Origin: a virus
Taxonomy: Duplodnaviria; Caudoviricetes
Length of the DNA stretch: 54,150 nt
Virus record (IMG/VR): IMGVR_UViG_3300027752_000024
Location: 1 to 54,150 of that record
Direction: 5' to 3' (one strand)
Part shown: in pieces, positions 29,133-50,061 of the stretch
How the letters are laid out: each line of letters opens with the position of its first letter
Numbering within the stretch: the stretch's first letter is position 1
Notes under the pieces: generated by a model
What the model saw: the letters and a program-made list of their open reading frames with translations, nothing else
What the model was told of the DNA's origin: nothing
Databases searched by the model: none
Program-made: the position numbers and the translations under genes

Positions 29133-30340
29133 TACCAGATTCCGTCTAGTTCAGGAAACACATCCAGTAAACTTTCTTGCCGCAATCTATCGATACGCTG
29201 TGTTTTAAACTTAAACATTTTTATTTCATCTGTGCGATCTTTTTCCATAAAGTTTAAAATACTCTCGTAATCGCTAATAACTGATTTAATATTGTCAAAC
29301 TGTTTTAAGTAAGAAATGTGTTCTGCATATCTTTTTGCTACTTGAGATTTAATCCACGGCGGCAATATACTCAATCTCATGTAAGAAGGATCCAATAAAA
29401 TGTTGATGCGAATGTTCTGCGGTTCTAGTAATCCTTCTTCTATCCATTCTTTGTGGAAATCAGGTAGGTTAAGCACGTTGTACACGCTTACAGTAGGCGT
29501 TAGCTCAAAATATACGTGTGGACACTGCTCAATCATATCTCTACGGTTTTGCACCACCTGTGACCATACCATGTTCTTACGCAAGTATTCACCGCGAGCA
29601 TGATTTGCATCCAAGCTACCGGCCACTCTTACGTGTTCAAACTTGTTCCAGTATTCAAATGCTGTTTTGTTTTTGTAATACATTTGTGTAAAGTTAGTGG
29701 TGTAATCCATTTTAACATCGTGCTTGCCCATGGCAATCCACTTGTCAAGTATACGATAGTGCTCTTGTGTAATCAACGGTTCGCCACCTGCCCAGTATAC
29801 TCTTTCAACACTGTCCAGCAATGGCTCAAGTTCGTCCATAAAGTTTAACATATCGTCACGCACTTTTAGTATCTTGCCATGCGGCAGTTCACCGTATATT
29901 GCTTTATGATCTTCAAACCAGCTACTACTAAACTGTGGCCCGCAACTACGACACTTTAAGTTACAAAGGTTACTAAAGCGTATGTCCATGTATGCCATGT
30001 TTACATCACCAGCACTGCCGTCGTCGCTTGTGCTTTCAACTTTGTCCCAATGATGCATATAGTTTTCTATACTGCTGTTACGCAGTGTACTCATACCGTT
30101 GTCTTCTAGTTCATAGCAACGTCTACATTCTTTGCTGGGCGTGTCTTCCAACATGTTAAGACGCAACTGCCGCATTTCTGGGCCGTTCCAAATGTCTTGC
30201 AATGTTTGATCTTGTGTATTTCCTACAGGATGATCTGGATCACTCATGCAGCAAGGATATGTAGTTCCAGCAGGCCACAAATGCATGTGCGTCCACGGCA
30301 TCATGCAAAAATGCTTGCTTTGTTTTAAATCGTTAGACAT
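29132..30340 (-). CDS. Radical SAM protein with N-terminal twitch/SPASM-like domain
   Basis: CMMPW..PCC..CRRC, CNLKCRSC, AGGEP, YTTN. Confidence 0.9.
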   Translation of the reverse strand: MSNDLKQSKHFCMMPWTHMHLWPAGTTYPCCMSDPDHPVGNTQDQTLQDIWNGPEMRQLRLNMLEDTPSKECRRCYELEDNGMSTLRNSSIENYMHHWDKVESTSDDGSAGDVNMAYMDIRFSNLCNLKCRSCGPQFSSSWFEDHKAIYGELPHGKILKVRDDMLNFMDELEPLLDSVERVYWAGGEPLITQEHYRILDKWIAMGKHDVKMDYTTNFTQMYYKNKTAFEYWNKFEHVRVAGSLDANHARGEYLRKNMVWSQVVQNRRDMIEQCPHVYFELTPTVSVYNVLNLPDFHKEWIEEGLLEPQNIRINILLDPSYMRLSILPPWIKSQVAKRYAEHISYLKQFDNIKSVISDYESILNFMEKDRTDEIKMFKFKTQRIDRLRQESLLDVFPELDGIW

Positions 30341-31544
30341 ATAAATCCTTTAGCTCTGGAAACACGTTGAGAAAGTTTTCTCCACGTTTCAGATCCATTT
30401 TCTGCATCTCCATCCTAAAAGCTGGAATCAAGTTGCTGTCATCACTATTGTACATGAAGTTTATAATATTGTCAATACCTTCATGTAGAAACTGTTTGCG
30501 CTGTGGATACATGTCTATTGCATCAATGTCCTGTTTTAACAACACCAAATTTTCTTTTGCAATGTCTTTTAAGTGTGCAGGTAATATTGTTATACTCAGC
30601 CAGTCTGGCCCGACTAATAGGTTGCTGAGATTGATATCGTAGTCGGTGGGTATGTTGTGTTCAAACAAGAAGTTAATAATCTTACGCAAGTCTAATATGT
30701 TTAATACACTGATAGTAGGATTAGGTTGTATGATTACACCTTTGTCATAACTGTGTTCAAAGTTATCACGTATCCAGCACAAGTTATCAAATACTGTACT
30801 CCACTTTTGTCCATTGCGTGTGTACTCGGCTTTGGCACCAATTTGGTCACAGCTTACACAGAAGAATATCTTATCAAAATGCTGCCAATACTTTTGTATG
30901 TGCTTGCCTTTTAAACTTAATCTACTGGCGTTACTGTTGTATGTTAATCTCGGTTTGAGTCCACGCTCTATAAGCATATCTAGCAGTCTGTAATGCTGCT
31001 CCATAAACAGGCTTTCGCCGCCAGTAAAATAAACTTCTTCAATAGTGGGCAACATTTCTTCAATCTCAGCCCACATTGCTGGATGATTGATTTCAACAAC
31101 TTCAGGCTTGCCAACAGTGTCTTCTGCCCACTTGCTGCTGAAATGAGGCCCACAACTACGACACTTCATGTTGCATAGATTACTAAACCTTACATCAAAG
31201 TATGCAAGATTCATTTGTTCTACACTACCATCATCGGCTGTTGTTTCTACTATGTCGTAATGATGGTCGTATTCGGTGTTGAACTTGTGTCTGTAACTGA
31301 TAATACCCTGGTCGTCATAGTTGGTACACTTTTTACATCCTTCGCTTGGTTCGTTGTTTAACATACGCATACGCAAGTCACGCATCTTTTCACTGTTCCA
31401 AGCACCTTTGAACCCAGCTTCGTTGATGTTACCAGTGGGCATATCCCAGTGATATATACAACAAGGATACGCATCGCCGTTTTGCCATACGCTCATGTGT
31501 GTCCATGGAGCCATACAAAAATGTTTTTTAAATTCTCTACTCAA
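30333..31544 (-). CDS. Radical SAM protein with N-terminal twitch/SPASM-like domain
   Basis: CMAPW..PCC..CKKC, CNMKCRSC, TGGES, YNSN. Confidence 0.9.
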   Translation of the reverse strand: MSREFKKHFCMAPWTHMSVWQNGDAYPCCIYHWDMPTGNINEAGFKGAWNSEKMRDLRMRMLNNEPSEGCKKCTNYDDQGIISYRHKFNTEYDHHYDIVETTADDGSVEQMNLAYFDVRFSNLCNMKCRSCGPHFSSKWAEDTVGKPEVVEINHPAMWAEIEEMLPTIEEVYFTGGESLFMEQHYRLLDMLIERGLKPRLTYNSNASRLSLKGKHIQKYWQHFDKIFFCVSCDQIGAKAEYTRNGQKWSTVFDNLCWIRDNFEHSYDKGVIIQPNPTISVLNILDLRKIINFLFEHNIPTDYDINLSNLLVGPDWLSITILPAHLKDIAKENLVLLKQDIDAIDMYPQRKQFLHEGIDNIINFMYNSDDSNLIPAFRMEMQKMDLKRGENFLNVFPELKDLYV

Positions 31545-32721
31545 TGTTGACTACTGCTTCTATAAGATTGTCTGTTATGTCATTCCAACTAATCTTACGT
31601 GAAAGGAACAACTGTTGGTTATGTAATAATTTATCATAATATTTTCGTCTGACGGTCCGTTTTAATACATCAATGTCATAGTTTTTAATATGTTTCCACA
31701 TTGCTTGTGCTTCAACAAAATTTGTAACTTTGTTAACACCGAACAAGTCTTCAAACGTATGATACCCACGTTCTCGTAATAGTTCGTGCTGCTGCGGATT
31801 ACCTATAATAAAGAATGGATGTAGATTCATAATAGCTTTATAAGTTTTTTCTGTTATAAAGTTTTTATGAGTGTCGCTTTCTGTAACTACACTTAATATA
31901 CTATCTTCGTAATATGGTTTAATGCTGTCGCCATAGTTGATAACAAACTGCGTGTGCAATGTATCTAACTTTCTTGGACGCATTTCTCTAAGAAGTGCTA
32001 ACTTATAATCTTTATGCAACTCTTCAGGAATACGATCTATTACAGAATGTCTACGAGCAACATCTTCAAACTCACGGCGACCCACAGCAGGCAAGTTAAA
32101 GCTAACATGTCCTTCGTCTAATACATCACTTCTTAACAAACTATACATCAACCATATACGATGTGGTTTGATATTTCTATTCAAACACAGAAACTTTTTA
32201 GTTGCTGCTCTAACAGTAGGTTTACTAGTAAATGAGATATCAGGAAGTACTTGGTGGTGTAGTCTAGTAATACTTTCCCAAAAGTTAACACTAACATACT
32301 TTACACCATGTATTATCCTATTGTGAGCATCTCTGTCGCTGCACATTACAACAACTTTGTGTAATGGTATGTTTTTACTTCTAAGCTCTTGTTCTAGTTT
32401 GTCCGGTGACATTCTACATTCCAGCACACTTGACAAACATAGATATACACTAGGATCGTTGTTTAATAAATCAATACTGGCTTGTGAAATATGTATGTCT
32501 GTGTTTCCAGGCATGTGAATATGATCAAAAATAAACTTAGGGACGTTTGCTGGCAATAGACTTAGTTGGTTTATATGGAAGAAGTTTCGGAATGAGAAGT
32601 CGTCCCAGTGTCCAAGAAGGTAACTTAGCTGGATAGATCCGTTGTTATGTCCAAAAGTCAGTGTAACATCACCGTGTGGTGATGGAAACACATTATCTAA
32701 TAAAAAATAGCATTTATACAT
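31537..32721 (-). CDS. Hypothetical protein, possibly a GT-B fold glycosyltransferase (GT10-like C-terminus)
   Basis: KKFLCLNR..KPHR and VVTES..FITEKTYKAI..HPFFIIG, which resembles the fucosyltransferase-type ITEK motif. Confidence 0.55.
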   Translation of the reverse strand: MYKCYFLLDNVFPSPHGDVTLTFGHNNGSIQLSYLLGHWDDFSFRNFFHINQLSLLPANVPKFIFDHIHMPGNTDIHISQASIDLLNNDPSVYLCLSSVLECRMSPDKLEQELRSKNIPLHKVVVMCSDRDAHNRIIHGVKYVSVNFWESITRLHHQVLPDISFTSKPTVRAATKKFLCLNRNIKPHRIWLMYSLLRSDVLDEGHVSFNLPAVGRREFEDVARRHSVIDRIPEELHKDYKLALLREMRPRKLDTLHTQFVINYGDSIKPYYEDSILSVVTESDTHKNFITEKTYKAIMNLHPFFIIGNPQQHELLRERGYHTFEDLFGVNKVTNFVEAQAMWKHIKNYDIDVLKRTVRRKYYDKLLHNQQLFLSRKISWNDITDNLIEAVVNIE

Positions 32722-35669: not shown

Positions 35670-35896
35670 GACTTTTTGATTGTCCTATGCATACCTTCTG
35701 GCGAATGAATAGCATTGATAAGATCGTTAAACATATCTGTTGATATTTCAAGTATACTGTGTATTTCAAGTTCGTTGTCGTACTGACGTATATAAACAAC
35801 ATCATCAAACGCATCAATAATTAAATCGTCGTATAGACCAGTTTCGTCCATTACAGTAATAGTTGTTAAGTCGTGATCAAACTCATTTGTAAACAT
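35666..35896 (-). CDS. Hypothetical acidic protein
   Basis: 76-aa ORF overlapping both neighbours. Confidence 0.55.
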   Translation of the reverse strand: MFTNEFDHDLTTITVMDETGLYDDLIIDAFDDVVYIRQYDNELEIHSILEISTDMFNDLINAIHSPEGMHRTIKKS

Positions 35897-36881
35897 TTGT
35901 ATCGTTATCCTTATATTTTGTAATCATTACTTCATCTATAGTATGGCATTCTTGTTGGTTGCATACCGTAAACTCATCTTTAAAAAGTTTCAAGTTAGGA
36001 TTAAAAATATTTCCTATACTTCCTGTATTGTTACATATGCCATACTGGACATTTCCATTAGCTTGTATTACTATCTTTTTATTTGTAACAGAACATTTCC
36101 ATCCTTTAAATCTATTTTGATTATTTCTAACAATAGTCGAAGCGTTTGACTCAATGCCGTCTACAGTTACATTTAAATATTCAGGAGTACTATGATTGTT
36201 GTCTTTGACTTGTTTAAGTTCTGTAGTTGAAAAGTATCCTAAACTACCATCATCAATAGTTTGCAAATAATGTTCTAAATTTCTACTAGATGCAAAAGTA
36301 GGATTTACTGTATTGGTAGAAGCATCATATAATGGAAAAACAGGAAGTCTAACTACAGGTATACTGTACTCTTTTAACGCAATCTCTAACGCATCAACGC
36401 GATCAAACAGTTTGTTTACCAACATTGCACGTATTTCTACACTGCCGCCGTGTTCTACAATAGTTGATGCTAATTCTACAACATGGGCAATATCAGCACT
36501 TTCTGGATGAAAACTAATCTCCATGTTAATATTCTTAAAACTATTTTTGCATTTCATGTACTGGCTAATAGGCAAACTGCCGTTAGTAAAAACTCCTACT
36601 TTAAAGTCGTTATCGGACATAAAGTTGAACCATTGATGCACTTTGGGAATTAAAAACGGTTCGCCACCTGTAACATACACAAGTACTGTTTTATCTGCAG
36701 GTATGTTATTTCGTATATTTGATGCAGCAGCGATTAAGTCATCTACAATAACAATATTTTTCTTAATAATAGAACGATGATTGCTAGGACTACAATAACT
36801 ACAATCATAGTTACACATATCTAAAGGGCGCCAATGAACAATATAATCTGCATACCAATCGATCTTTTTTATAATATTCAT
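35883..36881 (-). CDS. Radical SAM protein with C-terminal Cys-rich domain
   Basis: CNYDCSYC, TGGEP, FTNG, SFHPE. C-terminal GWKC..C..CNQQEC. Same architecture as 24792..25784. Confidence 0.88.
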   Translation of the reverse strand: MNIIKKIDWYADYIVHWRPLDMCNYDCSYCSPSNHRSIIKKNIVIVDDLIAAASNIRNNIPADKTVLVYVTGGEPFLIPKVHQWFNFMSDNDFKVGVFTNGSLPISQYMKCKNSFKNINMEISFHPESADIAHVVELASTIVEHGGSVEIRAMLVNKLFDRVDALEIALKEYSIPVVRLPVFPLYDASTNTVNPTFASSRNLEHYLQTIDDGSLGYFSTTELKQVKDNNHSTPEYLNVTVDGIESNASTIVRNNQNRFKGWKCSVTNKKIVIQANGNVQYGICNNTGSIGNIFNPNLKLFKDEFTVCNQQECHTIDEVMITKYKDNDTNVYK

Positions 36882-36903
36882 AAAAATACTTATCAACTTG
36901 ATT

Positions 36904-36991
36904 TGGCGGAAGCGGTGGGATTCGAACCCACGGTACCTTGCGGTACTCTAGTTTTCAAGACTAGCGCCTTAAGCCTCTCGGCCACGCTTCC
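36904..36991 (-). tRNA. tRNA-Ser(TGA)
   Basis: Cloverleaf with long variable arm, loop CT-TGA-AA, GTTCGAATC, encoded CCA. Confidence 0.95.
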
Positions 36992-36996
36992 TAGTT

Positions 36997-37070
36997 TGGC
37001 AAGGGTGCTAGGAGTCGAACCCAGGCTTAAGGATTTGGAATCCCACGTGCTACCATAACACTTCACCCCT
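36997..37070 (-). tRNA. tRNA-Trp(CCA)
   Basis: Loop TT-CCA-AA, GTTCGACTC, encoded CCA. Confidence 0.9.
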
Positions 37071-37072
37071 AC

Positions 37073-37277
37073 TGGTGTTACTGTTTGACAACTTAGATAG
37101 AATATTTTATTAATAGTGGTCCGTTAGCCTACACAGAGTGGAAACTGTGCCTTGACCCCTATAACGTTTATCAACGGGCTAAGGGCCATTGTCTCAGGCT
37201 TCCACTGAAGATTTTGTTATAGGATTTATAGTTTCAAGTAGAAGACCGCCACGGACCAACAGCGACACTCTTCTACT
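37073..37277 (-). ncRNA. Candidate structured ncRNA (about 200 nt) inside the tRNA array
   Basis: Nested complementary segments GTGTCGCTGTT/AACAGTAACAC, TGGTCCGT/ACGGACCA, AGTGGAAGC/GTTTCCACT, TGGCCCTTA/TAGGGGTCA. Ends in ACCA. No ORF. Confidence 0.55.
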
Positions 37278-37281
37278 ATTC

Positions 37282-37357
37282 TGGCGGTCTGCACGGGAAT
37301 CGAACCCGTCTCTCTGGCGTGACAGGCCAGTATACTAAACCGATATACTAGCAGACC
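37282..37357 (-). tRNA. tRNA-Asp(GTC)
   Basis: Loop CT-GTC-AC, encoded CCA. Confidence 0.95.
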
Positions 37358-37432
37358 TGGTAGTCCCTAGGGGAGTTGAACCCCTCTTTCAAGGTTGAAA
37401 ACCTCGTGTCCTAACCGATAGACGAAGGGACC
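37358..37432 (-). tRNA. tRNA-Glu(TTC)
   Basis: Loop TT-TTC-AA, encoded CCA. Abuts tRNA-Asp with no spacer. Confidence 0.93.
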
Positions 37433-37437
37433 ATATA

Positions 37438-37522
37438 TGGTATCAATCAAGGAATCGAACCTTACCGCAGTAGTTGACATGACGCCTGTAGTGTCGGTTA
37501 CTGTAGGCAAACCTGCATTGAC
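37438..37522 (-). ncRNA. Atypical tRNA-like RNA
   Basis: Acceptor stem GTCAAT/ATTGAT plus ACCA, canonical T-arm AAGG-TTCGATT-CCTT. The D-arm is minimal and a long interrupted arm replaces the anticodon arm. Confidence 0.65.
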
Positions 37523-37528
37523 ATAGTA

Positions 37529-37679
37529 TAGGCAGGATAAAGTGGCTATACACCAAAGGAGAGCCGGTTAAGGTTGTCCTAAGTCCCTATTCCCTTGGCA
37601 GCGATCAACCTGCCTCACAGTGTAAACATTCACTGTTCCTGTTATGCTCCCTAGCACGAAGCTGTATATGGGTAACAGT
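37529..37679 (-). ncRNA. Candidate structured ncRNA(s) between tRNA-Pro and the tRNA-like RNA
   Basis: Stems CTGTTA/TAACAG, ACAGTG/CACTGT, AGGCAGG/CCTGCCT and GCCAAGGGA/TCCTTTGGT. Confidence 0.45.
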
Positions 37680-37689
37680 GGACTACTTA

Positions 37690-37766
37690 TGGTCGGAGTA
37701 CAAGGATTCGAACCTTGGACCCTCTGCTCCCAAAGCAGATGCGCTACCAGACTGCGCCATACTCCG
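37690..37766 (-). tRNA. tRNA-Pro(TGG)
   Basis: CGGAGTA..loop TT-TGG-GA, encoded CCA. Confidence 0.95.
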
Positions 37767-37862
37767 TAAATTAAGAAGCAGTTTTGCGTCTTACTAAGGA
37801 CGGCCAATCTCCTGGACACCATTTGCTCAATTATTTTACAAGGGGAACAAAACCCTTTAACT

Positions 37863-37946
37863 TGGTAGGGATAAAAGGACTCGAACCTTCACGCATTGCT
37901 GCACTAGAACCTAAATCTAGCGTGTCTACCATTCCACCATATCCCC
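37863..37946 (-). tRNA. tRNA-Leu(TAG)
   Basis: Loop TT-TAG-GT, long variable arm, encoded CCA. Confidence 0.95.
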
Positions 37947-37959
37947 ACAGTGTTTGTTT

Positions 37960-38035
37960 TGGTGCCCCCACACGGACTCGAACCGCGGACCTATGGTTTA
38001 CAAAACCATTGCTCTACCAGCTGAGCTATAGGGGC
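37960..38035 (-). tRNA. tRNA-Thr(TGT)
   Basis: Loop TT-TGT-AA, encoded CCA. Confidence 0.95.
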
Positions 38036-38048
38036 AAAAACTTAATAG

Positions 38049-38411
38049 TTAGCCTGCACTGCGTGTTAAGAAATTAACACGAACTTTGCTTGGCTTAAAA
38101 AACTTTTCAATTACATCTTGTGCTATACCAATATCAACTGGCTTACACGAAAAAATATCAATATAAGCGTCACCATTGCTATCTACAAGGTGTCCACTGA
38201 TGTTGCTTGTTTCAATCATTTGGCAAAAGCTAATACCTGCCTTATCAGGGGCGTGTGTAGCAAAATGCTCAATCATTGGTTCCCCAAATGCAACCATTTC
38301 AATTGCTGGAACCAATTCTTTAATAAAGTTATAAACATTCTCTTTGCTCATAACAAGTTCTTTGTCACAAGCAGCGCAATCAAACATTGCATGATAACCC
38401 CAGTACGCCAT
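38049..38411 (-). CDS. speD: S-adenosylmethionine decarboxylase proenzyme (short prokaryotic/phage type)
   Basis: GYHAMFD..C, GISFCQMIETSNISGH (pyruvoyl cleavage region) and YIDIFSCK. Confidence 0.8.
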   Translation of the reverse strand: MAYWGYHAMFDCAACDKELVMSKENVYNFIKELVPAIEMVAFGEPMIEHFATHAPDKAGISFCQMIETSNISGHLVDSNGDAYIDIFSCKPVDIGIAQDVIEKFFKPSKVRVNFLTRSAG

Positions 38412-38441
38412 CTAATCTTTTTCCTTCTTTTCTAAATGTTA

Positions 38442-38516
38442 TGGAGCGGGTGATCAGGATCGAACTGACGACAATCTGCTTGGAAGGCAGGAGCTCTACC
38501 ACTGAGCTACACCCGC
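38442..38516 (-). tRNA. tRNA-Gly(TCC)
   Basis: GCGGGTG..loop CT-TCC-AA, TCCA end. Confidence 0.95.
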
Positions 38517-38524
38517 ATGTTATT

Positions 38525-38535
38525 TGGTGGGTCCT
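38525..38535 (-). repeat. 11-bp direct repeat of the tRNA-Ile2 3' end (AGGACCCACCA)
   Basis: tggtgggtcct occurs at 38525-38535 and 39022-39032, bracketing the HNH gene. Confidence 0.8.
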
Positions 38536-38971
38536 AAGAAATTCTACATCCTTTAGACCTGTTTTCTTTTATTGTTAGATATTGTAAGTTGCTTTCGTGG
38601 TGTAGTCCGCCTTTTGCTAAAGGTATGATATGGTCTACTTCGTGTCCTTCTGGGCAATTTTCATATATCGTTTGTATTAAGTCTTTATTAGCATTAGGTG
38701 CATACGCTCGATTGTATCCGTGTTTTGCTCTGTATCGTGCTTGCCTTGCAGCATTGGATGCTGCAACTATACTAGCATCTTTTTTTCTAACACTACTAGA
38801 GCATTTATTACTACAATACTTTTTGTTTCTTGTAACTGTGCCGCATACACTACACTCTATAGGATCTTTACCATGACGCCTAACACCTTTATTATTATGT
38901 TTTGCAGCACAAGATTTGCTACAAAACTTTGGATTTTTTGTTTCTACTTTGCAATGTTTACAGTTGTTCAT
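38534..38971 (-). CDS. HNH homing endonuclease
   Basis: Two Cys-rich zinc-finger repeats (CKHC..FCSKSC; CSVC..YCSNKC) and C-terminal HEVDHIIPLAKGGLHHESNLQYL..EN. Confidence 0.9.
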   Translation of the reverse strand: MNNCKHCKVETKNPKFCSKSCAAKHNNKGVRRHGKDPIECSVCGTVTRNKKYCSNKCSSSVRKKDASIVAASNAARQARYRAKHGYNRAYAPNANKDLIQTIYENCPEGHEVDHIIPLAKGGLHHESNLQYLTIKENRSKGCRIS

Positions 38972-39021
38972 ATAGTTATTTATCTATTTGAACTGCAAGT
39001 CACTCCGTAACAAAAACAACA

Positions 39022-39098
39022 TGGTGGGTCCTCCGAGACTCGAACTCGGAACCGTCCGGTTATGAGCCGGAAGCTCTAACCAATTGAGCTAAGGACCC
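39022..39098 (-). tRNA. tRNA with CAT anticodon, most likely tRNA-Ile2 (lysidine-modified)
   Basis: GGGTCCT acceptor stem with paired 1-72, loop CT-CAT-AA, A73. Lacks the initiator C1:A72 mismatch. tilS is present in the window. Confidence 0.8.
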
Positions 39099-39106
39099 GT
39101 ATTGGT

Positions 39107-39196
39107 TGGCAGACAGGGTGGGATTCGAACCCACGGAACGCTTGCACGTTCGCCGGATTAGTAATCCGGAGCTTTCGGCCACTCAGCCACCTGTCC
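39107..39196 (-). tRNA. tRNA-Ser with ACT anticodon
   Basis: Ser-type body (GGA start, long variable arm, G73). Anticodon arm CCGGA-TT-ACT-AA-TCCGG. Confidence 0.88.
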
Positions 39197-39200
39197 ACTT

Positions 39201-39275
39201 TGGCTCCACCTCCTGGGATCGAACCAGGGACCCACAGATTAACAGTCTGTTGCACTACCGCTGTGCTAAGGTGGA
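39201..39275 (-). tRNA. tRNA-Asn(GTT)
   Basis: TCC start, loop CT-GTT-AA, GCCA end. Confidence 0.95.
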
Positions 39276-39280
39276 ACATT

Positions 39281-39381
39281 AACTCTACTTACAACTGTGC
39301 CTCGGAGTTTACTCCGCTATCTTAAGAGGGCAAGATTCAAGTCCGGTTCTCTCACTTGCAGGCACAGTTGTAAGTAGAGTT
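39281..39381. repeat. 22-bp perfect inverted repeat enclosing two internal hairpins (structured leader/ncRNA)
   Basis: aactctacttacaactgtgcct (39281-39302) is the reverse complement of 39360-39381. Inner stems are CGGAGT/ACTCCG and GCAAG/CTTGC. Confidence 0.85.
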
Positions 39382-39464
39382 TTAACAATGTATGTTAGTG
39401 CATACATCGCTCTACTTACAGCTTATCATCGGCTTACGCCTAAAGCTAAAATATTCTGTCTAAA

Positions 39465-39496
39465 TTGTCAAAGAACGTGTAAACATTGCTGCTTAC
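39465..39496 (-). promoter_or_regulatory. rrn-like antitermination signal: boxB hairpin followed by boxA
   Basis: GTAAGCA-GCAA-TGTTTAC GNRA hairpin followed by GTTCTTTGACAA (bacterial boxA consensus GYTCTTTAACA). Confidence 0.7.
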
Positions 39497-39502
39497 TTAG
39501 TT

Positions 39503-39531
39503 AATGTAACATATTTTATAGTGTGTGTCAA
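39503..39531 (-). promoter_or_regulatory. tRNA operon promoter P2
   Basis: TTGACA-N17-TACATT. Confidence 0.7.
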
Positions 39532-39597
39532 TCACTTAGTTTAACTTTTTTGTAAGTGCATCAATCTATGTTACTAGTTTCTGCTGCTTACTTGTTT

Positions 39598-39626
39598 AAT
39601 ATAACGTATTATATATGGGTTGTCAA
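39598..39626 (-). promoter_or_regulatory. tRNA operon promoter P1
   Basis: TTGACA-N17-TATATT. Confidence 0.7.
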
Positions 39627-39698
39627 TGAGTTTCTTGCCTAATGTGGGAATATTTATCACTTTAATAAAAACTGCGCATAGAATGGTGTAAATACAGT

Positions 39699-40697
39699 AT
39701 GATTTATACAGAATGGGATCCTTTAAAGGAAATAATAGTTGGCAAGGTTTATGATCCTGCTGATATTGCACACATAGAAGACGTAGAGTTTCGCAATGGA
39801 CTACAACGAATATTTGAAGAAAGTGAAGAAGACTTTTGTGCTTTAACAGAAATGCTGGAAAGCTACGATGTTGTAGTACATAGGCCAAACTGTGAATACA
39901 AAGGTGACTTTCGATATCCTGCGGTATGTCCAAGAGACATGCACATTGTATATGGTGATCAAGTAATAAACACCATGGGCGGAGATCCTAATCGTTATTA
40001 CGAAAGTGATCACTTTGCAGATATTATGCTGGGATTAGATAGAGATTATTATGCAATGCCAAGGCCGACGTTGCCAAACTACTATGCTCCATATCAGTTC
40101 AATGAAGGTAAAATACTATACCATGCTGCCAACATACTAAAGTGTGGCGATGCACTATTACACACAAAGCCGTACAACAACAACACGTATACTCCAACTA
40201 GGCAGTTTGGCAGAGGAACTGATACAGGGTTAGATTGGTGCAAGAAGAACATAGATGCACGTTGGATTGAACTGCACGAAAGCGGACATGCCGATGGTAA
40301 GATTGCACTTATCAAACCCGGATTGCTGATGTGTTGGTTAGAAGATATGATTCCTCCCGAACTACAAAGTTGGGATAGAGTAGTTGTACCCAAGCAAGAT
40401 GTACCTGAACAGTTTTGGCAAAGTAAGAAACAACCTCTTATGCAAAAAAATGTAAATCAATGGCTGGGCAGCTGGATTGGTCACGTAGACGAAACTATTT
40501 TTGATGTTAATGTTGTTAGTGTATCACCAGAGTTGGTTATTACAAATGGATACGATGCAGGTGTAGCAGCACAACTTAAAAAGCATGGTGTGGAAATGGT
40601 TCCATTTAACTTTAGACACAAGTTCTTTTGGGATGGCGGATTGCACTGTGTAACATTAGATTTAACAAGAGAAGGCAAGTGTGAAACATATGTATAA
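39699..40697 (+). CDS. Amidinotransferase (glycine / inosamine-phosphate amidinotransferase family)
   Basis: EWDPLKEIIVG, CPRD, HADG and terminal GGLHCVTLDL.R with catalytic Cys. Confidence 0.88.
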   Translation: MIYTEWDPLKEIIVGKVYDPADIAHIEDVEFRNGLQRIFEESEEDFCALTEMLESYDVVVHRPNCEYKGDFRYPAVCPRDMHIVYGDQVINTMGGDPNRYYESDHFADIMLGLDRDYYAMPRPTLPNYYAPYQFNEGKILYHAANILKCGDALLHTKPYNNNTYTPTRQFGRGTDTGLDWCKKNIDARWIELHESGHADGKIALIKPGLLMCWLEDMIPPELQSWDRVVVPKQDVPEQFWQSKKQPLMQKNVNQWLGSWIGHVDETIFDVNVVSVSPELVITNGYDAGVAAQLKKHGVEMVPFNFRHKFFWDGGLHCVTLDLTREGKCETYV

Positions 40698-41406
40698 GAT
40701 AGCAATGCACATACCTACCGAACTGTTGGTGGTAGATGATTTTTTATCACAGGATGATTGGGATAAAGTACACAATCAAGTGCAGTGTGATGAATGGACA
40801 CAAAGCCAAGCAGACGACAAGTATTGGCACATAACAGACGGTGCCAACTACAAAGCCAGCAAACGCTTTATAAAAGATGCACCGTTCAATGACAACTACG
40901 ATCCGTGGGTAGACGCAATAAAGAAGTTTGCAGACACTTGCGAACAAGCACAAGAGTTTGTAAGTGGATATACAGACATTGCAATGCGATGCCACGGATA
41001 TCCAGTTGGTAGTAAGAATCCTTGGCACACCGACATGGGCGGAGTTACTTACAGTTATTATCTACACAAACAATGGCAAATAAACTGGGATAGTACGCTA
41101 CTGGTATTACCTCGTGGCAGTGTAGAATACAAACAGATAATGCGTAAGCTACCTGGTACTAAACAACACGACACTTACAAAACAGTAGGCACACTCGAAA
41201 TGTTTGAGCAAGCAGAAAAACAAAAGCACTTGATTGAATATGGTTTGGGCACATTTGTATCACCCAAGCCCAACAGGCTGGTGTTGATTGGTAAGAACGT
41301 TGTACACGGTATAAACAGAGTAGACTCGGATGCTGGTGAAAACATACGATTAACACTTACAGGATTCTTTAACTTTTTTAATACTCAGGTAGTAAAAAAT
41401 GTTTAG
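40681..41406 (+). CDS. 2OG-Fe(II) oxygenase (prolyl hydroxylase-like)
   Basis: WHTD (HxD), YYL..W..NW, PKPNRLV, HG and R.TL.GF motifs. Confidence 0.8.
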   Translation: MKHMYKIAMHIPTELLVVDDFLSQDDWDKVHNQVQCDEWTQSQADDKYWHITDGANYKASKRFIKDAPFNDNYDPWVDAIKKFADTCEQAQEFVSGYTDIAMRCHGYPVGSKNPWHTDMGGVTYSYYLHKQWQINWDSTLLVLPRGSVEYKQIMRKLPGTKQHDTYKTVGTLEMFEQAEKQKHLIEYGLGTFVSPKPNRLVLIGKNVVHGINRVDSDAGENIRLTLTGFFNFFNTQVVKNV

Positions 41407-42199
41407 CTCAAAAGCAATAGCAATTCGTGATCCAGAAGTAGCAGACTTTATCAAAACTATAAAGGTACCGTTTGATGCATTTGCATCTCCTATACATTTT
41501 ATTAAACACCACAGAGAATGGTTAGTAAATAATACATTTTATATTAACGGGCTAGACGAGTTTGAAAATGCATATGTGACTGCTGGTGTTACAGAAGCTT
41601 TCAATGAAGTTTACAAGGATGAATGTTTTGTACTAGAAGGCGAATACAGCTATCATAAAGATCTTGGAATACCAATAGTTGATTATAAAAATATTCCAAA
41701 CGGATCGAGACTTATTATAAGTTATCCATTTGCATCTACAGGCAATCCGCACAATCAGTGGAAAGACATTCTCGACCACTGCGAGAAAAACAATATAAAA
41801 ATATTTGTCGATGCTTGTTTAGCAGGTGTTAGCTTGGGTAAGATTGATTTGCGATATCCTTGTATTACGCACATTGCATTTAGTTTTAGCAAAGCATTTA
41901 ATACAGGACATCTACGTAGTGGAGTTGTATACACTAAAAGTAATGATGCTAGTCCTGCAAGTATTACAAACAAGCATTTTTATTTAAATCATTTAAGTAT
42001 GGTACTGCACACTAAACTAATGAATCAGTTTAGCAGTGACTTTATTTTTCACAAGCATAGATTAAAACAAATTGAGTTGTGTAAAGAACACAGCCTAATA
42101 CAAAGCGACTGTGTTCTTTTTGGGTTAGACAACAATCAACGAAAGTGTCTTAGTCCCGTGTTGGGAAATCAACTACCGTTTGATCAGTTTTCACAATAA
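41399..42199 (+). CDS. PLP-dependent enzyme (fold type I, aminotransferase-like, short)
   Basis: GVTEAF, ISYPF.STG, FVDAC and SFSKAF..LRSG (Schiff-base Lys). Confidence 0.7.
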   Translation: MFSSKAIAIRDPEVADFIKTIKVPFDAFASPIHFIKHHREWLVNNTFYINGLDEFENAYVTAGVTEAFNEVYKDECFVLEGEYSYHKDLGIPIVDYKNIPNGSRLIISYPFASTGNPHNQWKDILDHCEKNNIKIFVDACLAGVSLGKIDLRYPCITHIAFSFSKAFNTGHLRSGVVYTKSNDASPASITNKHFYLNHLSMVLHTKLMNQFSSDFIFHKHRLKQIELCKEHSLIQSDCVLFGLDNNQRKCLSPVLGNQLPFDQFSQ

Positions 42200-42365
42200 C
42201 CAGTCCTGGTTTAGAGTTTTTCTTGTCGTGTTCTTCTTGTATAAGCTCTTCGATGATATTTGAAACTTCTTCATCTTCAAAGTGAAGATATTTTTCAATA
42301 ATATCTAAACGACTGTCAATCTTGTACAACAGTTCAAGCATTTCGTCCATTTTAAAATCACTCAT
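42150..42365 (-). CDS. Hypothetical acidic protein
   Basis: ORF coupled to the upstream gene (TAATG). Confidence 0.55.
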   Translation of the reverse strand: MSDFKMDEMLELLYKIDSRLDIIEKYLHFEDEEVSNIIEELIQEEHDKKNSKPGLVIVKTDQTVVDFPTRD

Positions 42366-42865
42366 TAGTTTGCATTAAGATTAGCATTTGCATCAATGCC
42401 ATCACCTACACGATAGTTATTGTAAGTATACGCAGTACCAGATAACCCGTTCCATTCAAAGCGAATAAAATAGTTTTTAAGTTGTTGTGTTTGACTACGT
42501 GAGTTTACTTGCTTGCATTGGCGCTCTATACGGTACCCTGTAATAACTTGACGACTGGAGTTATTATCAGCTGCAATAACTCCGCCCATTACTGCGCCAG
42601 CGGCTGCGCCGTTGTCTTTACCAGTAATACCTTTGCCAATTAACGCACCGAGGATCATACCGCTGAGTACATCTCCGCCATTGGCTCCGCCACCTGTATT
42701 GCCATAGACAGGAACTTCTACATCATAGCATTGTGTAGTTGGATTGTTCTGATATACAGTTTCATACCTTGGTTCAACATATGTAATACGTGCTCGTACT
42801 ACTTCAGCGTTTACAGCAGACGCTGCAACAACAGCTACGATCGTACTAAAAAATAAAGTTTTCAT
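42365..42865 (-). CDS. Exported glycine-zipper protein (YcfJ-like)
   Basis: Signal peptide, GMILGALIGKG..GAAAGAVMGGVIA glycine zipper, paired Cys. Confidence 0.75.
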   Translation of the reverse strand: MKTLFFSTIVAVVAASAVNAEVVRARITYVEPRYETVYQNNPTTQCYDVEVPVYGNTGGGANGGDVLSGMILGALIGKGITGKDNGAAAGAVMGGVIAADNNSSRQVITGYRIERQCKQVNSRSQTQQLKNYFIRFEWNGLSGTAYTYNNYRVGDGIDANANLNAN

Positions 42866-43170: not shown

Positions 43171-43707
43171 TTATTTTAAAAATCCTGAGATTTGTAGAGT
43201 GTATTTGTCTGCCATTCCAGCGTTGGCACTTAGATGCAAATGGTTGTGATCCCAAATGTATCCATCGCCTGCACTCCAATGTGTGCTGTTGTGCCACGTC
43301 TTGTCGTGCTCTTGATACTGAATAAGATGTCCAACTTTCCAATCTTGCAAGTACATATTAGCACGAACTTTTAAACGTTTGTCATCTGGGTAACGTTTGT
43401 TGATTTGGAAGAATGTATCTCTGTGAATAGGAATAACGTTGCCTGGTGGCTGTAATACTGTGCTAACAGTTACCACTTCAATGCCCAACTGGCGTTCGAA
43501 CTCTTTGTAGTCTACCTGTGTTTCGTCAAACCACAACTGTCTAATCAATGTGTTGCTGCGTTCGTAGCTGTCTGGAAATCCACCGTGTTCTTCGTGAACA
43601 TCCTGTAGCTCATGTACTTGGTGTGCAATACAGCTACCTTCGTGTACACTGTAGTCGGCATTTAGAAATACATCAAAATCATAATCTAGTTTAGTTTGTA
43701 CTAACAT
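43171..43707 (-). CDS. 2OG-Fe(II)/cupin-like oxygenase
   Basis: PGNVIPIHRD (HxD) and HLSANAG..KYTLQISG. Start moved to MLVQ. Confidence 0.6.
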   Translation of the reverse strand: MLVQTKLDYDFDVFLNADYSVHEGSCIAHQVHELQDVHEEHGGFPDSYERSNTLIRQLWFDETQVDYKEFERQLGIEVVTVSTVLQPPGNVIPIHRDTFFQINKRYPDDKRLKVRANMYLQDWKVGHLIQYQEHDKTWHNSTHWSAGDGYIWDHNHLHLSANAGMADKYTLQISGFLK

Positions 43708-44065
43708 CAGTTTGATCCTTTTTCCAAAACTCGCCGAGACGTACCTTGTAATCATCTTTGGCAATAACTTCTACATTACTTACACGATCGTAACGAAAGC
43801 TACGGAAGCCTTTTGATTCAACTGCCCATGCTGCACAAACTTTGTCAGATACTTCACGCACTTTCTTTTGTGTGATTGCATCATCTTTGGTTGCAGGCGG
43901 TAAAAAACTTTCAATAAGTGTGCATGGCATTTTACGTTCTTCGCCATTGAGTTTTAAAAAAGTTACTTCAACTACTTCTTTGCGTAATAAACTCATTAGT
44001 TCAACACGGGTAGGAATACCTTTTAAATCAGCTATTGTCTTCTGCACGTCTTCTGTTGTAGACAT
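43691..44065 (-). CDS. SH3-fold phage protein (WYL_2/DUF2693-like)
   Basis: VEVTFLKLNGEERKMPCTL...W.VESKGFRSFR. Confidence 0.7.
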   Translation of the reverse strand: MSTTEDVQKTIADLKGIPTRVELMSLLRKEVVEVTFLKLNGEERKMPCTLIESFLPPATKDDAITQKKVREVSDKVCAAWAVESKGFRSFRYDRVSNVEVIAKDDYKVRLGEFWKKDQTDVSTN

Positions 44066-44651
44066 TTACTTTCTCCAATATATCTGCCCAAGTTACATTG
44101 GGCTTTCCTCTTAAACTTAAAACAACTCTACGGTTATCATTGCCTGTGTTGTTGCTTCTGTGAAATACATCTGTTTTGATCAGTTGTATGCTATTTAACA
44201 CTATTGACTCACTCACAATATAGTTGTTGTCAAAGTATTCAGGCATCATAGCACTGCCGCCTGGTGCAAACTGCTCTGTACCAAAGTCGTTGTTGTGATC
44301 TTCAAACCATTCGTTTATACCCAAGTCGCAATTTGCAATAGGAATATTAATAGCCCATGGTCGAAGTTCTTTTGATTGTCCTAAACAATCTTTATGTATC
44401 TGTAACTTACGGTGTGGATTGGTTACAAATAGTCTAGCAGTTTGTAGCTCAATATCAAGAGCATCCAGCAACGATTGTACCGGCCATTTAATGTCTTTGC
44501 CAGTGATTAAAAAACCTGTAACCACTGGCAATATTCTATTGTCGTCTTTGTAAAGTGTTCTGCTATCGAGCTTGTGTCCAAACTCATTCCAATAGATATC
44601 ATACAACTCTTGTGTTGGTAAATGAAAATCTACTGGACAGCTAAACTTCAT
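44028..44651 (-). CDS. 2OG-Fe(II)/cupin-like oxygenase
   Basis: IHKD (HxD), AINIPI and FHRSNN..RVVLSLR motifs. Confidence 0.55.
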
Positions 44652-45265
44652 CTTTGTGATATTACGTCATCTGCAAGTCCGTATTCAACTGCTTCTGCTG
44701 CTGTAAGGAATGTGTCAAACTTCATAGTTTCAAACAGTTCAGCATACTCTTTGCCTTTGCTGTTATGACGAACATACAGCTCTGTAAGGCGCTTGTTAAC
44801 CTTCTTACTTTCTTCCATGCTGCGAACTGCATCTTCGAACTGTAGTTCTTGTACGTGTACACTGCCGCTAGTGCCGCGTGTGCCTGAGCTTACACGGTGG
44901 ATCATTGTACGGCTCTCCGGTAGTACTACCCGCTTGCCTGCTGTGCCTGCTTGTGCAAGGAACGATCCCATGCTACATGCTTGACCCATTACAATTGTAC
45001 GCACATCGCATTTGATAAACTGCATAGTATCGTAAATAGCAAGACCTGCTGTGACAGCACCGCCTGGACTGTTGATGTACAAGTTAATATCTTTGTCAGG
45101 ATTTTCTGACTCAAGAAACAACATTTGAGCCACAATCAAGTTGGCCATGTTATCTTCTACTGGTCCGTTGAGCATAACAATACGGTCCTTCATTAAACGA
45201 CTGTAAATATCGTATGAACGCTCGCCTTTAGATGTTTGTTCAACTACCATTGGTACTAGTGGCAT
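44648..45265 (-). CDS. clpP: ATP-dependent Clp protease proteolytic subunit
   Basis: [22 protein letters not shown] (Ser), MIH (His), EAVEYGLAD. Confidence 0.95.
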
Positions 45266-46248: not shown

Positions 46249-46663
46249 CTACAAACTCACCATCAACGATTTTCATAAACTTACAGGGAACACTCAAGTC
46301 TCCAACACGTTTGAAGTATGATCGACCACCATCTACTGCGCAATCACCAACTGTACGATAATCATGTCGATGCTGTGAATACTCCCAACCCGTTGATCCT
46401 TCAATCATACCAAACTCAAGTGTTTCAATCATATCAGCGTCTGTAATGTAAACATTGCCGTTAGCATGAGGATTGCGATACAGACCAAAGTAGCGATTGC
46501 CAAACTCAGGATGCGGTGTAGCACGATAATAGATATCAGCAGCATAATTGGCATGTTCGTTAGTAGCTGAGGTGCAAACATACTTTACTGGTACGCCGTC
46601 TTTTTCACTGTAGAGCTTTTCTACTTCTGCTGTGTCAAACAGTGGGCTGTGGCTGATGTTCAT
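46229..46663 (-). CDS. Hypothetical phage protein
   Basis: YSQHRHDY..VDGGRSY motif of the kind seen in large-phage hypotheticals. Confidence 0.65.
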   Translation of the reverse strand: MNISHSPLFDTAEVEKLYSEKDGVPVKYVCTSATNEHANYAADIYYRATPHPEFGNRYFGLYRNPHANGNVYITDADMIETLEFGMIEGSTGWEYSQHRHDYRTVGDCAVDGGRSYFKRVGDLSVPCKFMKIVDGEFVDEKQDF

Positions 46664-47252
46664 CTTCTTTAACCTTTTTTGCGATAGTTTTATGAATGCC
46701 TGGGTTAACTTTTAGTACGTGCGGCATCATTTCATGTCTAATATAGTTACGAGTATAGCATATATCTGCGTTGCTGTCATCCTCAATCCACGGCACGTTG
46801 TTAAGATTTGCCCAAAGTTCAAAGTCACGTTTGCGATTTAAACGGAACGGACGAACAACATTCTTACGGCGAAACGGGATCCATTTGCCTGTGCCGTTCA
46901 GGCTGCTCATTACCCATGTTTCTACACAATCGTCTAAATGGTGGCAAGTAACAATAGGCGCACAATCTACAAGGTCAAAATATTTATAACGCTGTTCACG
47001 CCACCAAGCTTCTCTGCTAAGACCCGGCGGCACAGTGCCTCTGCATTCTCCAAACTCGTACGGAATACGATTATCAGCACAGTAGCGTTCTACAAATGCT
47101 CTTGCTTGTTCACTGTGTGCAGTTTTATGATCAAAGTGTAGTACATTTACATCATGATTGCGGCGTAGAAAGTCTAATGCTGCCATACTGTCAACTCCAC
47201 CACTACATGCTAGATAAATTCTACGAGGTAGTTTGCCTTGTAGTTTAATCAT
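46635..47252 (-). CDS. tilS: tRNA(Ile)-lysidine synthetase (N-terminal ATPase domain only)
   Basis: ACSGGVDS (PP-loop), R..RY, HHLDD.VET, RP and EDDSN..YTRNYIRH motifs. Start moved to MIKLQ. Confidence 0.9.
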   Translation of the reverse strand: MIKLQGKLPRRIYLACSGGVDSMAALDFLRRNHDVNVLHFDHKTAHSEQARAFVERYCADNRIPYEFGECRGTVPPGLSREAWWREQRYKYFDLVDCAPIVTCHHLDDCVETWVMSSLNGTGKWIPFRRKNVVRPFRLNRKRDFELWANLNNVPWIEDDSNADICYTRNYIRHEMMPHVLKVNPGIHKTIAKKVKEDEHQPQPTV

Positions 47253-47461
47253 TGATTTGCACACCACTCGCGCCAAGTAAGGATTTCCATTGATGCTCCA
47301 TCCCCACGAGTCTTTAAATAGCCGTCTTCAATCAAACTATCAATAGCACTTGCTACAACTCCTTCAACATGGGCTCGTTTACCCATGTACCAACCTACTA
47401 GTGTAAATACCAATGCTACAACAAACACCATCAGTGTCTGCATATTTAAAAACATTTCCAT
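47249..47461 (-). CDS. Small membrane protein
   Basis: N-terminal TM helix. Coupled to both neighbours. Confidence 0.55.
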   Translation of the reverse strand: MEMFLNMQTLMVFVVALVFTLVGWYMGKRAHVEGVVASAIDSLIEDGYLKTRGDGASMEILTWREWCANQ

Positions 47462-49098: not shown

Positions 49099-50061
49099 TC
49101 AACCTATAACTTCACACAATCCATGAGCAAATACATCAACAGATTTTTGAATAGTTGTGTGCAGCAATATTTCTTTTGCTGCTTTTGCTGTACGTGTATT
49201 GTTACCATCTTCGTCTAGAATAGGATTGCCATCTTTATCTTTTTCAGTAGCTCTACGCCCAGCAGTATACTTAATATCAAAATAACTATCATTTAGATGT
49301 GCTTTGTGTGCATCAAAAAACCCATCCTGTGCATCATCTCTATTACAGTAAAATACAATATCACCTTGCAAATCTTTTTGTACACAATACTCTATTAGAG
49401 TTTGATGATCTGCATCTGTAAAGCCTTCGCCATAACTTGTAAAGCTATCTCTGTAAGGAGGGTCATAAAAGAAAAATGTACGCTCATTGTTTGCAGCATC
49501 ACTAGCTACTTGCCAATCGCCGCAGTAAACATCTGCCTTTTGTAAAAAAGTATGCCACTCTAACACATTGTCTTTCTCGTATACCGATGTCTTTTGATTA
49601 CCTAGTCCAAACGGTGTATCAAATCTACCATTTGCACGTTTAGTAGTTTGCCAAATGCCATTAAATGCTGTTTTCATTAAGAAGTAAAGTGTAGCACTTT
49701 CTTCTGTAGCAGTCCATGTGTGTATATTGGTTGCATATGGTGTGCGTAGATTGTAAAACCATTCTTTACGAGCTGCTTTGTCTAATGGCAAATACTGTGC
49801 TTCTAATGCATCCATACGTTTAATAAAGTTATCAAGATCGTTCTTGATAGCATTATAGATACCAACAAGTTCTTCTTTAACATCATTAATAATAAAACGT
49901 TTTACGTCTGGACAGTTTTTATACACCCAAATAGTCATTGCGCCGCCACCAAAAAATGGCTCGACAAATGTGTCGTAGCCACTAGTTGGGATACCCGGAC
50001 CTTCTAAGTACTTGGGTATCATTTTGTTTTTGCCACCTGCCCACATATATAACGGTTTCAT
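49099..50061 (-). CDS. DNA adenine methyltransferase (D12/Dam class)
   Basis: WAGGK, FVEPFFGGG, IND, FNG and YDPPY motifs. Confidence 0.9.
   Translation of the reverse strand: MKPLYMWAGGKNKMIPKYLEGPGIPTSGYDTFVEPFFGGGAMTIWVYKNCPDVKRFIINDVKEELVGIYNAIKNDLDNFIKRMDALEAQYLPLDKAARKEWFYNLRTPYATNIHTWTATEESATLYFLMKTAFNGIWQTTKRANGRFDTPFGLGNQKTSVYEKDNVLEWHTFLQKADVYCGDWQVASDAANNERTFFFYDPPYRDSFTSYGEGFTDADHQTLIEYCVQKDLQGDIVFYCNRDDAQDGFFDAHKAHLNDSYFDIKYTAGRRATEKDKDGNPILDEDGNNTRTAKAAKEILLHTTIQKSVDVFAHGLCEVIG

Follow-up and report, generated by a model that had tools for sequence, protein, structure and literature searches.

A three-gene amidinotransferase-fold, oxygenase and PLP-enzyme cassette of a marine T4-like phage looks like a shuffled module of a radical-SAM-rich island

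In the biosynthesis of streptidine, an aminotransferase step is followed by an amidinotransferase, and the tailoring sets of aminoglycosides include a twitch radical SAM (S-adenosylmethionine) dehydrogenase, BtrN, as well as B12 radical SAM methylases and a TobZ-type carbamoyltransferase. The present study concerns three adjacent genes of a virus that bring together an amidinotransferase fold, an Fe(II)/2-oxoglutarate (2OG) dioxygenase and a pyridoxal 5'-phosphate (PLP) enzyme. They are located on the plus strand, at 39699–42199 of the IMG/VR record IMGVR_UViG_3300027752_000024 (Duplodnaviria; Caudoviricetes), and are called genes 1, 2 and 3 in the following. The window of our analysis is this entire viral contig of 54,150 bp. 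Marine T4-like phages are described as having numerous radical SAM genes (PMC5332604) and, in hypervariable regions, cassettes of them (PMC7029224), as far as the available portions of both papers go. A functional study of these phage genes did not turn up in our literature search; they may be listed in the gene tables that supplement the two papers. With a probability of roughly 0.4, we consider the three open reading frames (ORFs) to be a co-transcribed and translationally coupled tailoring cassette, which would be part of a larger island of N-twitch radical SAM and hydroxylase genes. The observations behind it are the structure of the genes, their folds, the conservation of catalytic residues and the linkage between the genes. 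Judged from its sequence, the cassette looks like a shuffled module of a radical-SAM-rich island common to marine phages and Bdellovibrionia, and we leave its product unassigned.

Gene 1 (39699–40697, 332 aa, ATG start) encodes a non-canonical amidinotransferase-fold (pentein) enzyme, gene 2 (40690–41406) a dioxygenase of the prolyl-4-hydroxylase (P4H)/PHD-like type, and gene 3 (41399–42199, 266 aa, ATG start) a compact PLP enzyme with a class-I aminotransferase fold. The genes overlap by 8 nt at both junctions: the stop codon of gene 1 (40695–40697) lies behind the ATG of gene 2 (40690), and the stop codon of gene 2 (41404–41406) behind the ATG of gene 3 (41399). An alternative GTG start at 40681 would give a gene 2 product of 241 aa; the ATG is preferred because of the homologue alignment. 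Since database homologues exist (290 for gene 1, 77 for gene 2 and 58 for gene 3) and related viral contigs carry intact orthologues of all three with 58–82% identity, we regard them as real genes. A greedy ORF call assigns 63 of the 76 window ORFs to the minus strand, and the sign change of the GC skew in the window is confined to 40–42 kb. The 3' end of gene 3 overlaps a convergent minus-strand ORF (42150–42365), and no terminator-like site was found 3' of this gene. A first-pass annotation of this DNA had noted three overlapping plus-strand genes in a minus-strand region and had named the three enzyme families. Coordinates, overlaps and strand counts are in agreement with the former, and the families are borne out by profiles, folds and conserved residues. 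The source is an uncultured marine T4-like phage, distant from isolates. The large subunit of its topoisomerase II shows 36–38% identity to Vibrio and Enterobacter phage proteins, and a blastn search with 39500–42300 against isolated phages gave zero matches.

The closest solved relatives of gene 1 are amidinotransferases. A profile of 26 homologues, searched against the Protein Data Bank (PDB), retrieves SxtG (E = 2.9e-42), StrB1 (3.2e-41), HsvA (1.2e-40) and AGAT (1.7e-38), with arginine deiminase at an E-value of about 0.9. For the AlphaFold (AF2) model, which has a predicted local distance difference test (pLDDT) score of 87.8, Foldseek lists StrB1, HsvA, SxtG and AGAT as best matches (E-values of 2e-23 to 2e-21), followed by DDAH (4e-13). 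The residues C317 (in the motif GGLHC), H197, D199 and D80 (in PRD) are invariant in 26 of 26 sequences and are present in 143–146 of the best 150 representatives (C317 in 145). C317 is aligned with GGxFHC of the four solved amidinotransferases, H197 and D199 with their H-x-D motif, and D80 with PRD. In AGAT, the counterparts of H197, D199 and D80 are H303, D305 and D170, which we take to be the catalytic His and two guanidinium-binding Asp.

Thus gene 1 shares with StrB1, AGAT, SxtG and HsvA the fold, the profile kinship, the Cys of GG-x-HC, the H-x-D motif and the Asp of PRD, but it departs from them at the third member of the catalytic triad. The Asp found there in all four (the D of FDAAD/FDAAN) has index 217 in chain numbering of 1jdx, corresponding to D254 of AGAT by the 37-residue offset seen in the alignment, and we take it to be catalytic. 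Gene 1 has His142 in this column, and the 26 sequences have His (20) or Asn (6) and in no case Asp. The column is variable across the clade: among the best 150 representatives, N occurs in 27, D in 24, S in 19, H in 15 and E in 10, besides others, the more distant alignments being less certain. The first-pass claim that the Cys/His/Asp motifs are present therefore holds for the Cys, the His and the two guanidinium-binding Asp, but not for the triad Asp, which is replaced by His142. Other features are conserved in the gene 1 clade alone, namely an 8-residue insert with the invariant residues E265 and D269, and the likewise invariant R306, H307 and D312. C317, H197, D199, D80, E265, R306, H307 and D312 are each kept in 123–146 of the best 150 representatives. 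The position of AGAT Arg322 is not Arg in gene 1.

Curated models hardly capture this protein. No Pfam family matches at E ≤ 1, and in NCBIfam the C-terminus of arginine deiminase is the sole match (E = 0.18), with no curated amidinotransferase model. Among 1.84 billion representatives, 1,856 relatives were found at E ≤ 1e-3, of which 335 remain at E ≤ 1e-30. By profile and alignment, gene 1 is assigned to a large, mostly viral clade of the amidinotransferase fold with a rebuilt active site; our literature search found no paper on the function of this clade. ORF266 of the isolated cyanophage S-SCSM2R falls into it with a profile E-value of 5.6e-53. According to the available part of PMC12801897, ORF266 was detected in the proteome of a virion preparation, where its authors suspect carry-over, so that at least one member of the clade appears to be made as protein.

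Gene 2 shows the HxD...H facial triad (H116, D118, H209) and a C-terminal Arg (R223) as the basic 2OG-binding residue, all invariant in 20 sequences, as in prolyl-4-hydroxylase and PHD2 (PF13640). Unlike members of this Pfam family, it stays under the cut-off: 2OG-FeII_Oxy_3 reaches 22 bits (E = 3.3e-4) instead of 27, and Oxy_4 is also below its cut-off. Many gene 2 homologues do carry PF13640, and some are named Tpa1-like prolyl hydroxylase by JGI. The best solved match is PHD2/EGLN1 (E = 0.004), with JmjC proteins also among the best solved relatives, and neither Pfam nor PDB profile searches gave a match to a family of the TauD/CAS type at E ≤ 1. In isolated phages, tblastn finds merely 25% identity over 54% of the length, to cyanophage 2OG oxygenases. 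We conclude that gene 2 is, as far as profiles tell, prolyl-hydroxylase-like and probably not of the VioC type.

In gene 3, Pfam recognises Aminotran_1_2 (PF00155) with 26.2 bits against a cut-off of 19.7, and the match covers positions 138–250 of the 361 profile positions alone, i.e., the PLP core. D138, K165 (in SFSK), R173 and R248 are invariant in 23 sequences. With hhalign, E. coli HisC (E = 3.7e-4) and AspC (0.016) are aligned such that D138, K165 and R173 fall on the PLP Asp, the Schiff-base Lys and the phosphate Arg. About 250 of the 266 residues of the AF2 model (pLDDT 93.2) align with class-I enzymes across both domains, at VIA Z-scores of 18–18.7. Hence gene 3 has the two-domain fold and the PLP-binding Lys, Asp and Arg in common with HisC and aspartate aminotransferase (AspAT), but it is approximately 100 residues shorter; full-length members of its family have 256–306 aa. 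Transaminases, C-S lyases, ACC synthase, a decarboxylase and arginine-oxidising PLP enzymes match the model almost equally well (Z of 17.8–18.7), so that no reaction type can be assigned. The nearest Atlas clusters are 91–100% viral, apart from copies in Bdellovibrionia, and tblastn against isolated phages gave zero matches for this gene.

How often the three genes travel together was surveyed from each of them. A profile scan places gene 1 relatives in at least 490 viral stretches, and 86 loci, representing 72 distinct gene 1 alleles, were examined. Within about 5 kb of gene 1, gene 2 was found in 19 alleles, gene 3 in 24, both in 8 and neither in 37, and one or more radical SAM genes occur within this distance in 37 of the 72. 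If the count is restricted to alleles flanked by 3 kb or more on each side (53), the respective numbers are 12, 20, 5 and 26, with radical SAM genes in 32. When gene 2 is used as the seed (48 alleles), gene 1 adjoins it in 18 out of 18 close orthologues and in 0 out of 30 more distant ones. Seeding with gene 3 (23 alleles) shows gene 1 within 8 kb in 16, abutting in 11 of them; 4 have a radical SAM gene alone and 3 have neither. Genes 2 and 3 were found together only where gene 1 is present.

The closest loci illustrate the degree of reshuffling. Four of them (L003, L004, L005, L007) have all three genes, and in L007 genes 1 and 2 are separated by a 0.7-kb insert; L006 and L009 have genes 1 and 2 and lack gene 3, and L008 has gene 1 alone. 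In locus L002, gene 1 is followed by the beginning of gene 2, where the contig ends, so gene 3 cannot be judged there. An extra gene lies between genes 2 and 3 in L022–L024 and L031. Two or three tandem gene 1 paralogues were observed in L024 (1664–6023), L031 (2783–6023), L059 and L066, and in L024 and L031 an ATP-grasp gene is placed between two of the paralogues. The first-pass annotation had proposed a compact pathway that synteny should reveal. The overlapping, operon-like order supports this, but co-conservation of the trio is limited to the closest clade. The setting that is conserved at greater depth is an island rich in radical SAM genes, to which the first-pass annotation drew no link.

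The families that recur around gene 1 homologues are N_Twi_rSAM (E-values down to 1e-121), other radical SAM proteins and a KdoO-like hydroxylase (Pfam E = 2e-8), together with the Asp/Asn beta-hydroxylase family, 2OG-FeII_Oxy_5, ATP-grasp, carbamoyltransferase and several unknown families. Cellular genomes contain the gene 1 clade in 14 loci. Ten of these belong to metagenome-assembled genomes of Bdellovibrionia, with 36–41% identity; N_Twi_rSAM is found in 10/10 and a gene 3 homologue in 8/10, and one of the two loci without gene 3 is merely 2 kb long. The neighbours in the other four are phage-like, with 50–83% identity to viral contigs, and these loci could be phage DNA that was binned wrongly. 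Over the cut-off, N_Twi_rSAM genes number 19 in one Bdellovibrionia genome and 11 and 14 in two others, compared with none in any of 14 control genomes. In a 916-kb contig of the first, the segment G001:C1:745468-774898 (L211, L212, L091) combines 13 of the 19 N_Twi_rSAM genes, in tandem within approximately 30 kb, with homologues of genes 1 and 3, and this island also holds KdoO-like hydroxylase and Asp/Asn beta-hydroxylase-family genes.

The window itself carries seven radical SAM genes on the minus strand between 23474 and 36896, interleaved with the viral family f5, DUF6267 and others. N-terminal-twitch radical SAM genes were recognised by Pfam, N_Twi_rSAM and family hidden Markov models (HMMs) at 23474–24880, 25772–27085, 29132–30340 and 30333–31544; the third of these matches NCBIfam N_Twi_rSAM (NF033640) with an E-value of 7e-121. 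Pfam and family HMMs add a further radical SAM gene (24792–25784) and a B12-binding one of 719 aa (26973–29132). The radical SAM gene nearest to the cassette (35883–36896; Pfam Radical_SAM E = 9.6e-9, PHROG radical SAM, HMM of family f30) is separated from it by a tRNA array, speD and an HNH gene. We infer that this array is linked to the cassette. Family f5 (31537–32721, minus strand, by its HMM) has zero Pfam matches, as judged from one member, and zero PDB matches; an Atlas lead to glycosyltransferase-10 (0.80–0.81) was at chance level and was discarded.

For the tailoring cassette, the following route can be proposed. Gene 3 would convert a carbonyl into an amine, or the reverse, on a carboxylate-bearing substrate. 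Cys317 of gene 1 would then form a thiouronium intermediate with a guanidino donor, by analogy arginine, from which the amidino group would move on to an amine to give a guanidine, and gene 2 would hydroxylate the same scaffold. The order from gene 3 to gene 1 is modelled on streptidine biosynthesis, and this reaction order, the amidino donor and a single scaffold for all three enzymes are what we infer beyond the observations. Candidate scaffolds are a sugar acid or glycan, a peptide or protein, or a small metabolite, which would also be handled by the radical SAM island. Hints at lipopolysaccharide or sugar acids come from KdoO-like and LpxO-family neighbours, and from KdsA and KdsB beside ORF266 of S-SCSM2R. 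Twitch/SPASM relatives, protein-hydroxylase families and the ATP-grasp protein are hints of the peptide type. The guanidino or hydroxylated product envisaged in the first-pass annotation is thus retained in part: enzyme families and gene overlaps support a tailoring route, but not the route by arginine cyclisation.

Several observations weigh against the proposed cassette. Without the triad Asp, gene 1 might act as a hydrolase or by some other chemistry, and some sources automatically name its homologues dimethylarginine dimethylaminohydrolase. In gene 3, the equivalents of Asn194 and Tyr225 of AspAT, which we take to contact O3' of PLP, are not kept; F111/A112 and L141 stand there in hhalign alignments of low confidence with single-sequence templates. 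The trio is complete in 8 of the 72 gene 1 alleles and 37 lack both partners within about 5 kb, and in one 342-kb contig over 100 kb separate a gene 3 homologue from genes 1 and 2. The three genes need not share a substrate. The radical SAM array of the window is on the opposite strand, at least 2.8 kb off and past the tRNA array. With respect to the glycan option, GT2 is absent from the Bdellovibrionia island and from three phage records, including a complete 328-kb genome, a search that was confined to this glycosyltransferase family; the option is weakened by this absence. On contigs C105 and C49 of genome G003, the distance between GT2 and N_Twi_rSAM genes is a few kb.

The same enzymes could act on a peptide or protein, either in the manner of peptides that are made by ribosomes and modified after translation (RiPPs) or on a virion or host envelope protein, with gene 1 modifying peptidyl arginine, ornithine or lysine, gene 2 acting as a residue hydroxylase and the radical SAM proteins as maturases. 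We judge this unlikely, though with a real chance of being right. Most of the SPASM/twitch relatives that NCBIfam scores are peptide maturases, albeit far under the cut-offs; Asp/Asn beta-hydroxylase-family neighbours and the ATP-grasp gene between gene 1 paralogues fit as well, and so do the protein hydroxylase PHD2 as best solved match of gene 2 and an ATE_C-like protein (E = 1.8e-4, under the cut-off) directly upstream of distant gene 1 homologues. On the other hand, no precursor-peptide gene was identified, the solved amidinotransferases are known as small-molecule enzymes, and thirteen tandem radical SAM paralogues are atypical of a RiPP cluster. The invariant R248 of gene 3, which seems to be placed like the class-I Arg that binds the alpha-carboxylate, would rather fit a free acid. 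In the available part of PMC12801897, ORF266 of S-SCSM2R is accompanied in the virion preparation by a prolyl-dihydroxylase-like protein, again in favour of a protein substrate. A free-arginine metabolite is improbable in our view. Here a hydroxylase and a PLP cyclase would act as in capreomycidine or enduracididine formation, joined by the amidinotransferase, to release an effector, along the lines of the VioC/VioD analogy drawn at first pass. Genes 2 and 3 do adjoin in the window, and OrfR (4m2m), GntC (8fft), RohP (6c3c) and Plu4 (7rgb) are among the structural matches of gene 3. These are tied, however, with dozens of ordinary class-I aminotransferases and with lyases and ACC synthases in the Z range given above, and in Foldseek OrfR ranks 10 and GntC 33 with E-values like all others. 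Together with the P4H/PHD2-like character of gene 2, for which a TauD/CAS-type match is lacking at the threshold used, this speaks against the analogy. Moreover, genes 2 and 3 occur together in the said 8 alleles alone, and gene 3 is found far more often with gene 1 in the absence of gene 2.

Packing by chance is the opposite extreme: three unrelated accessory genes without a common substrate, brought together in a hypervariable region. The reshuffling between relatives (missing gene 3, the insert in L007, the extra gene in L022–L024 and L031) and the 37 alleles without either partner speak for it, as do the hypervariable islands with radical SAM cassettes known from marine T4-like phages, as described in the available part of PMC7029224. 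It is nevertheless decidedly unlikely in view of the 8-nt stop/start overlaps at both junctions, of gene 2 adjoining gene 1 in 18 out of 18 close alleles, and of genes 1 and 3, which abut in 11 alleles and are linked again in Bdellovibrionia. A hypermodification of DNA or nucleotides, in which a base or a base-linked group of the phage DNA is decorated, appears very improbable. A distant relative of gene 1 (24% identity) is found in Campylobacter phages whose guanine is replaced, and the genes of the window include a DNA methyltransferase and a PP-loop ATPase, together with a radical SAM gene that weakly matches a QueE-like PHROG. But genes for a transglycosylase, a hydroxymethylase or a base kinase were not among the scanned window ORFs, which are part of the ORFs of a 54-kb contig, the same set of gene 1, gene 3 and radical SAM genes resides in Bdellovibrionia chromosomes, and the literature found gave no link to DNA modification.

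Returning to the tailoring cassette, its upstream region was inspected for signals. The motif GTAAATA (39688–39694, plus strand) is located 4 nt before the ATG of gene 1 and is a putative late-promoter-like or translation-start element. As noted at first pass, TAAATA (39689–39694) is followed by CAGT and then ATG. GTAAATA precedes gene 1 in 7/7 sequences, with a distance of 4 nt in the window and 5 nt in six related loci. Throughout the window, 10 of 55 TAAATA sites lie 0–40 nt before a start on the same strand, compared with approximately 1.6 expected from the position share. The consensus of T4 late promoters is TATAAATA, with a usual spacing to the start. This exact sequence is not enriched in the window (3 occurrences, below the shuffle mean of 5.5), and GTAAATA matches it at 7/8 positions with no space for a leader. 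The late timing proposed at first pass is therefore unsupported, as the motif differs from TATAAATA and stands merely 4–5 nt from the ATG.

On the opposite strand, a sigma-70-like promoter, TTGACA-17-TATATT (39598–39626, minus strand, 11/12 consensus matches), faces the tRNA array. Both hexamers and the 17-nt spacing are kept in six related loci, and this putative divergent promoter accounts for most of the conserved intergenic sequence upstream of the cassette. The RNA-library data consist of assembled contigs only, from 4 runs of 2 studies, and are uninformative on transcription, strand and timing. They cover gene 1 with two exact low-depth pieces (40124–40285 and 40462–40672), give zero cover for genes 2 and 3, and strongly cover the tRNAs, a leader at 39283–39590 and the genes on the minus strand after 42121. 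The leader, between the promoter on this strand and tRNA-Asn, contains a cloverleaf-like RNA fold of 100 nt (39283–39382, minus strand) with a 21-bp closing stem and three hairpins. Its minimum free energy is -53.6 kcal/mol (z = -9.6 versus shuffles), and one RNA-library contig spans exactly these 100 bases. The fold is called by neither ARAGORN nor Rfam; tRNAs alone reach the gathering score in Rfam. The array (36904–39275, minus strand) has 11 tRNA genes (Ser, Trp, Asp, Glu, Pro, Leu, Thr, Gly, Met, Ser, Asn) and is split by an S-adenosylmethionine decarboxylase gene (speD, 38049–38411) and an HNH endonuclease gene (38534–38971), the latter with ATAAATA 5 nt before its start.

Downstream of the cassette, the minus strand encodes a 166-aa ORF (42365–42865) with a signal-peptide-like N-terminus and a glycine-rich middle, both noted by eye. 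It has zero Pfam matches and is kept beside the cassette in related contigs. HxD...H-like strings were seen by eye in the ORFs 43171–43764 and 44028–44651, which have zero Pfam and zero PDB matches. Further on follow a ClpP protease (44648–45265), a PP-loop ATPase of the ATP_bind_3 type (46635–47276) and a DNA methyltransferase (49099–50061). At the other end of the contig, an ORF of 2,371 aa (3408–10523, minus strand) is situated beside tail-fibre-like genes, of which 1682–3073 matches a PHROG tail fibre family. This ORF may correspond to the giant baseplate protein of pelagimyophages.

From a practical point of view, three small, soluble-looking enzymes with recognisable chemistry offer an experimental entry to the radical SAM and oxygenase genes of marine T4-like phages. 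The cassette also defines a large clade of the amidinotransferase fold with an altered active site, comprising the 335 representatives mentioned above. Finally, that gene 1, gene 3 and N-twitch radical SAM genes are linked in phages as well as in Bdellovibrionia suggests that two kinds of bacterial predator have an unnamed pathway in common. Going one step further, the cassette might be the phage edge of an undescribed biosynthetic system common to marine T4-like phages and predatory Bdellovibrionia. Such a system would unite tandem N-twitch radical SAM proteins, a rebuilt amidinotransferase, a miniature PLP enzyme and hydroxylases, and make or edit a heavily tailored, guanidino-bearing molecule at the envelope interface of predator and prey. 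This is speculative, and we rate it as unlikely.

Compared with the streptidine and aminoglycoside sets, the locus and its relatives offer a PLP enzyme, an amidinotransferase fold, twitch and B12 radical SAM proteins and a carbamoyltransferase near gene 1 homologues. No cyclitol or sugar-nucleotide genes were identified, however, GT2 is absent from the islands checked, and gene 3 is class-I-like rather than DegT-like, so that the likeness is one of logic alone. In cyanophage S-SCSM2R, ORF266 of the gene 1 clade is followed by a 2OG oxygenase, as in our window, but its neighbours show no homology to genes 2 and 3. The same genome contains, at 228–236 kb (L213), a run of ten genes with five glycosyltransferases, two 2OG oxygenases, a PLP enzyme, a radical SAM protein and a canonical-type amidinotransferase. 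This cluster, ORF301–310, resembles the present locus in combining an amidinotransferase, 2OG oxygenases, a radical SAM gene and a PLP enzyme; it differs in that its amidinotransferase, ORF309, is of the canonical type with the Asp kept and stands amid glycosyltransferases.

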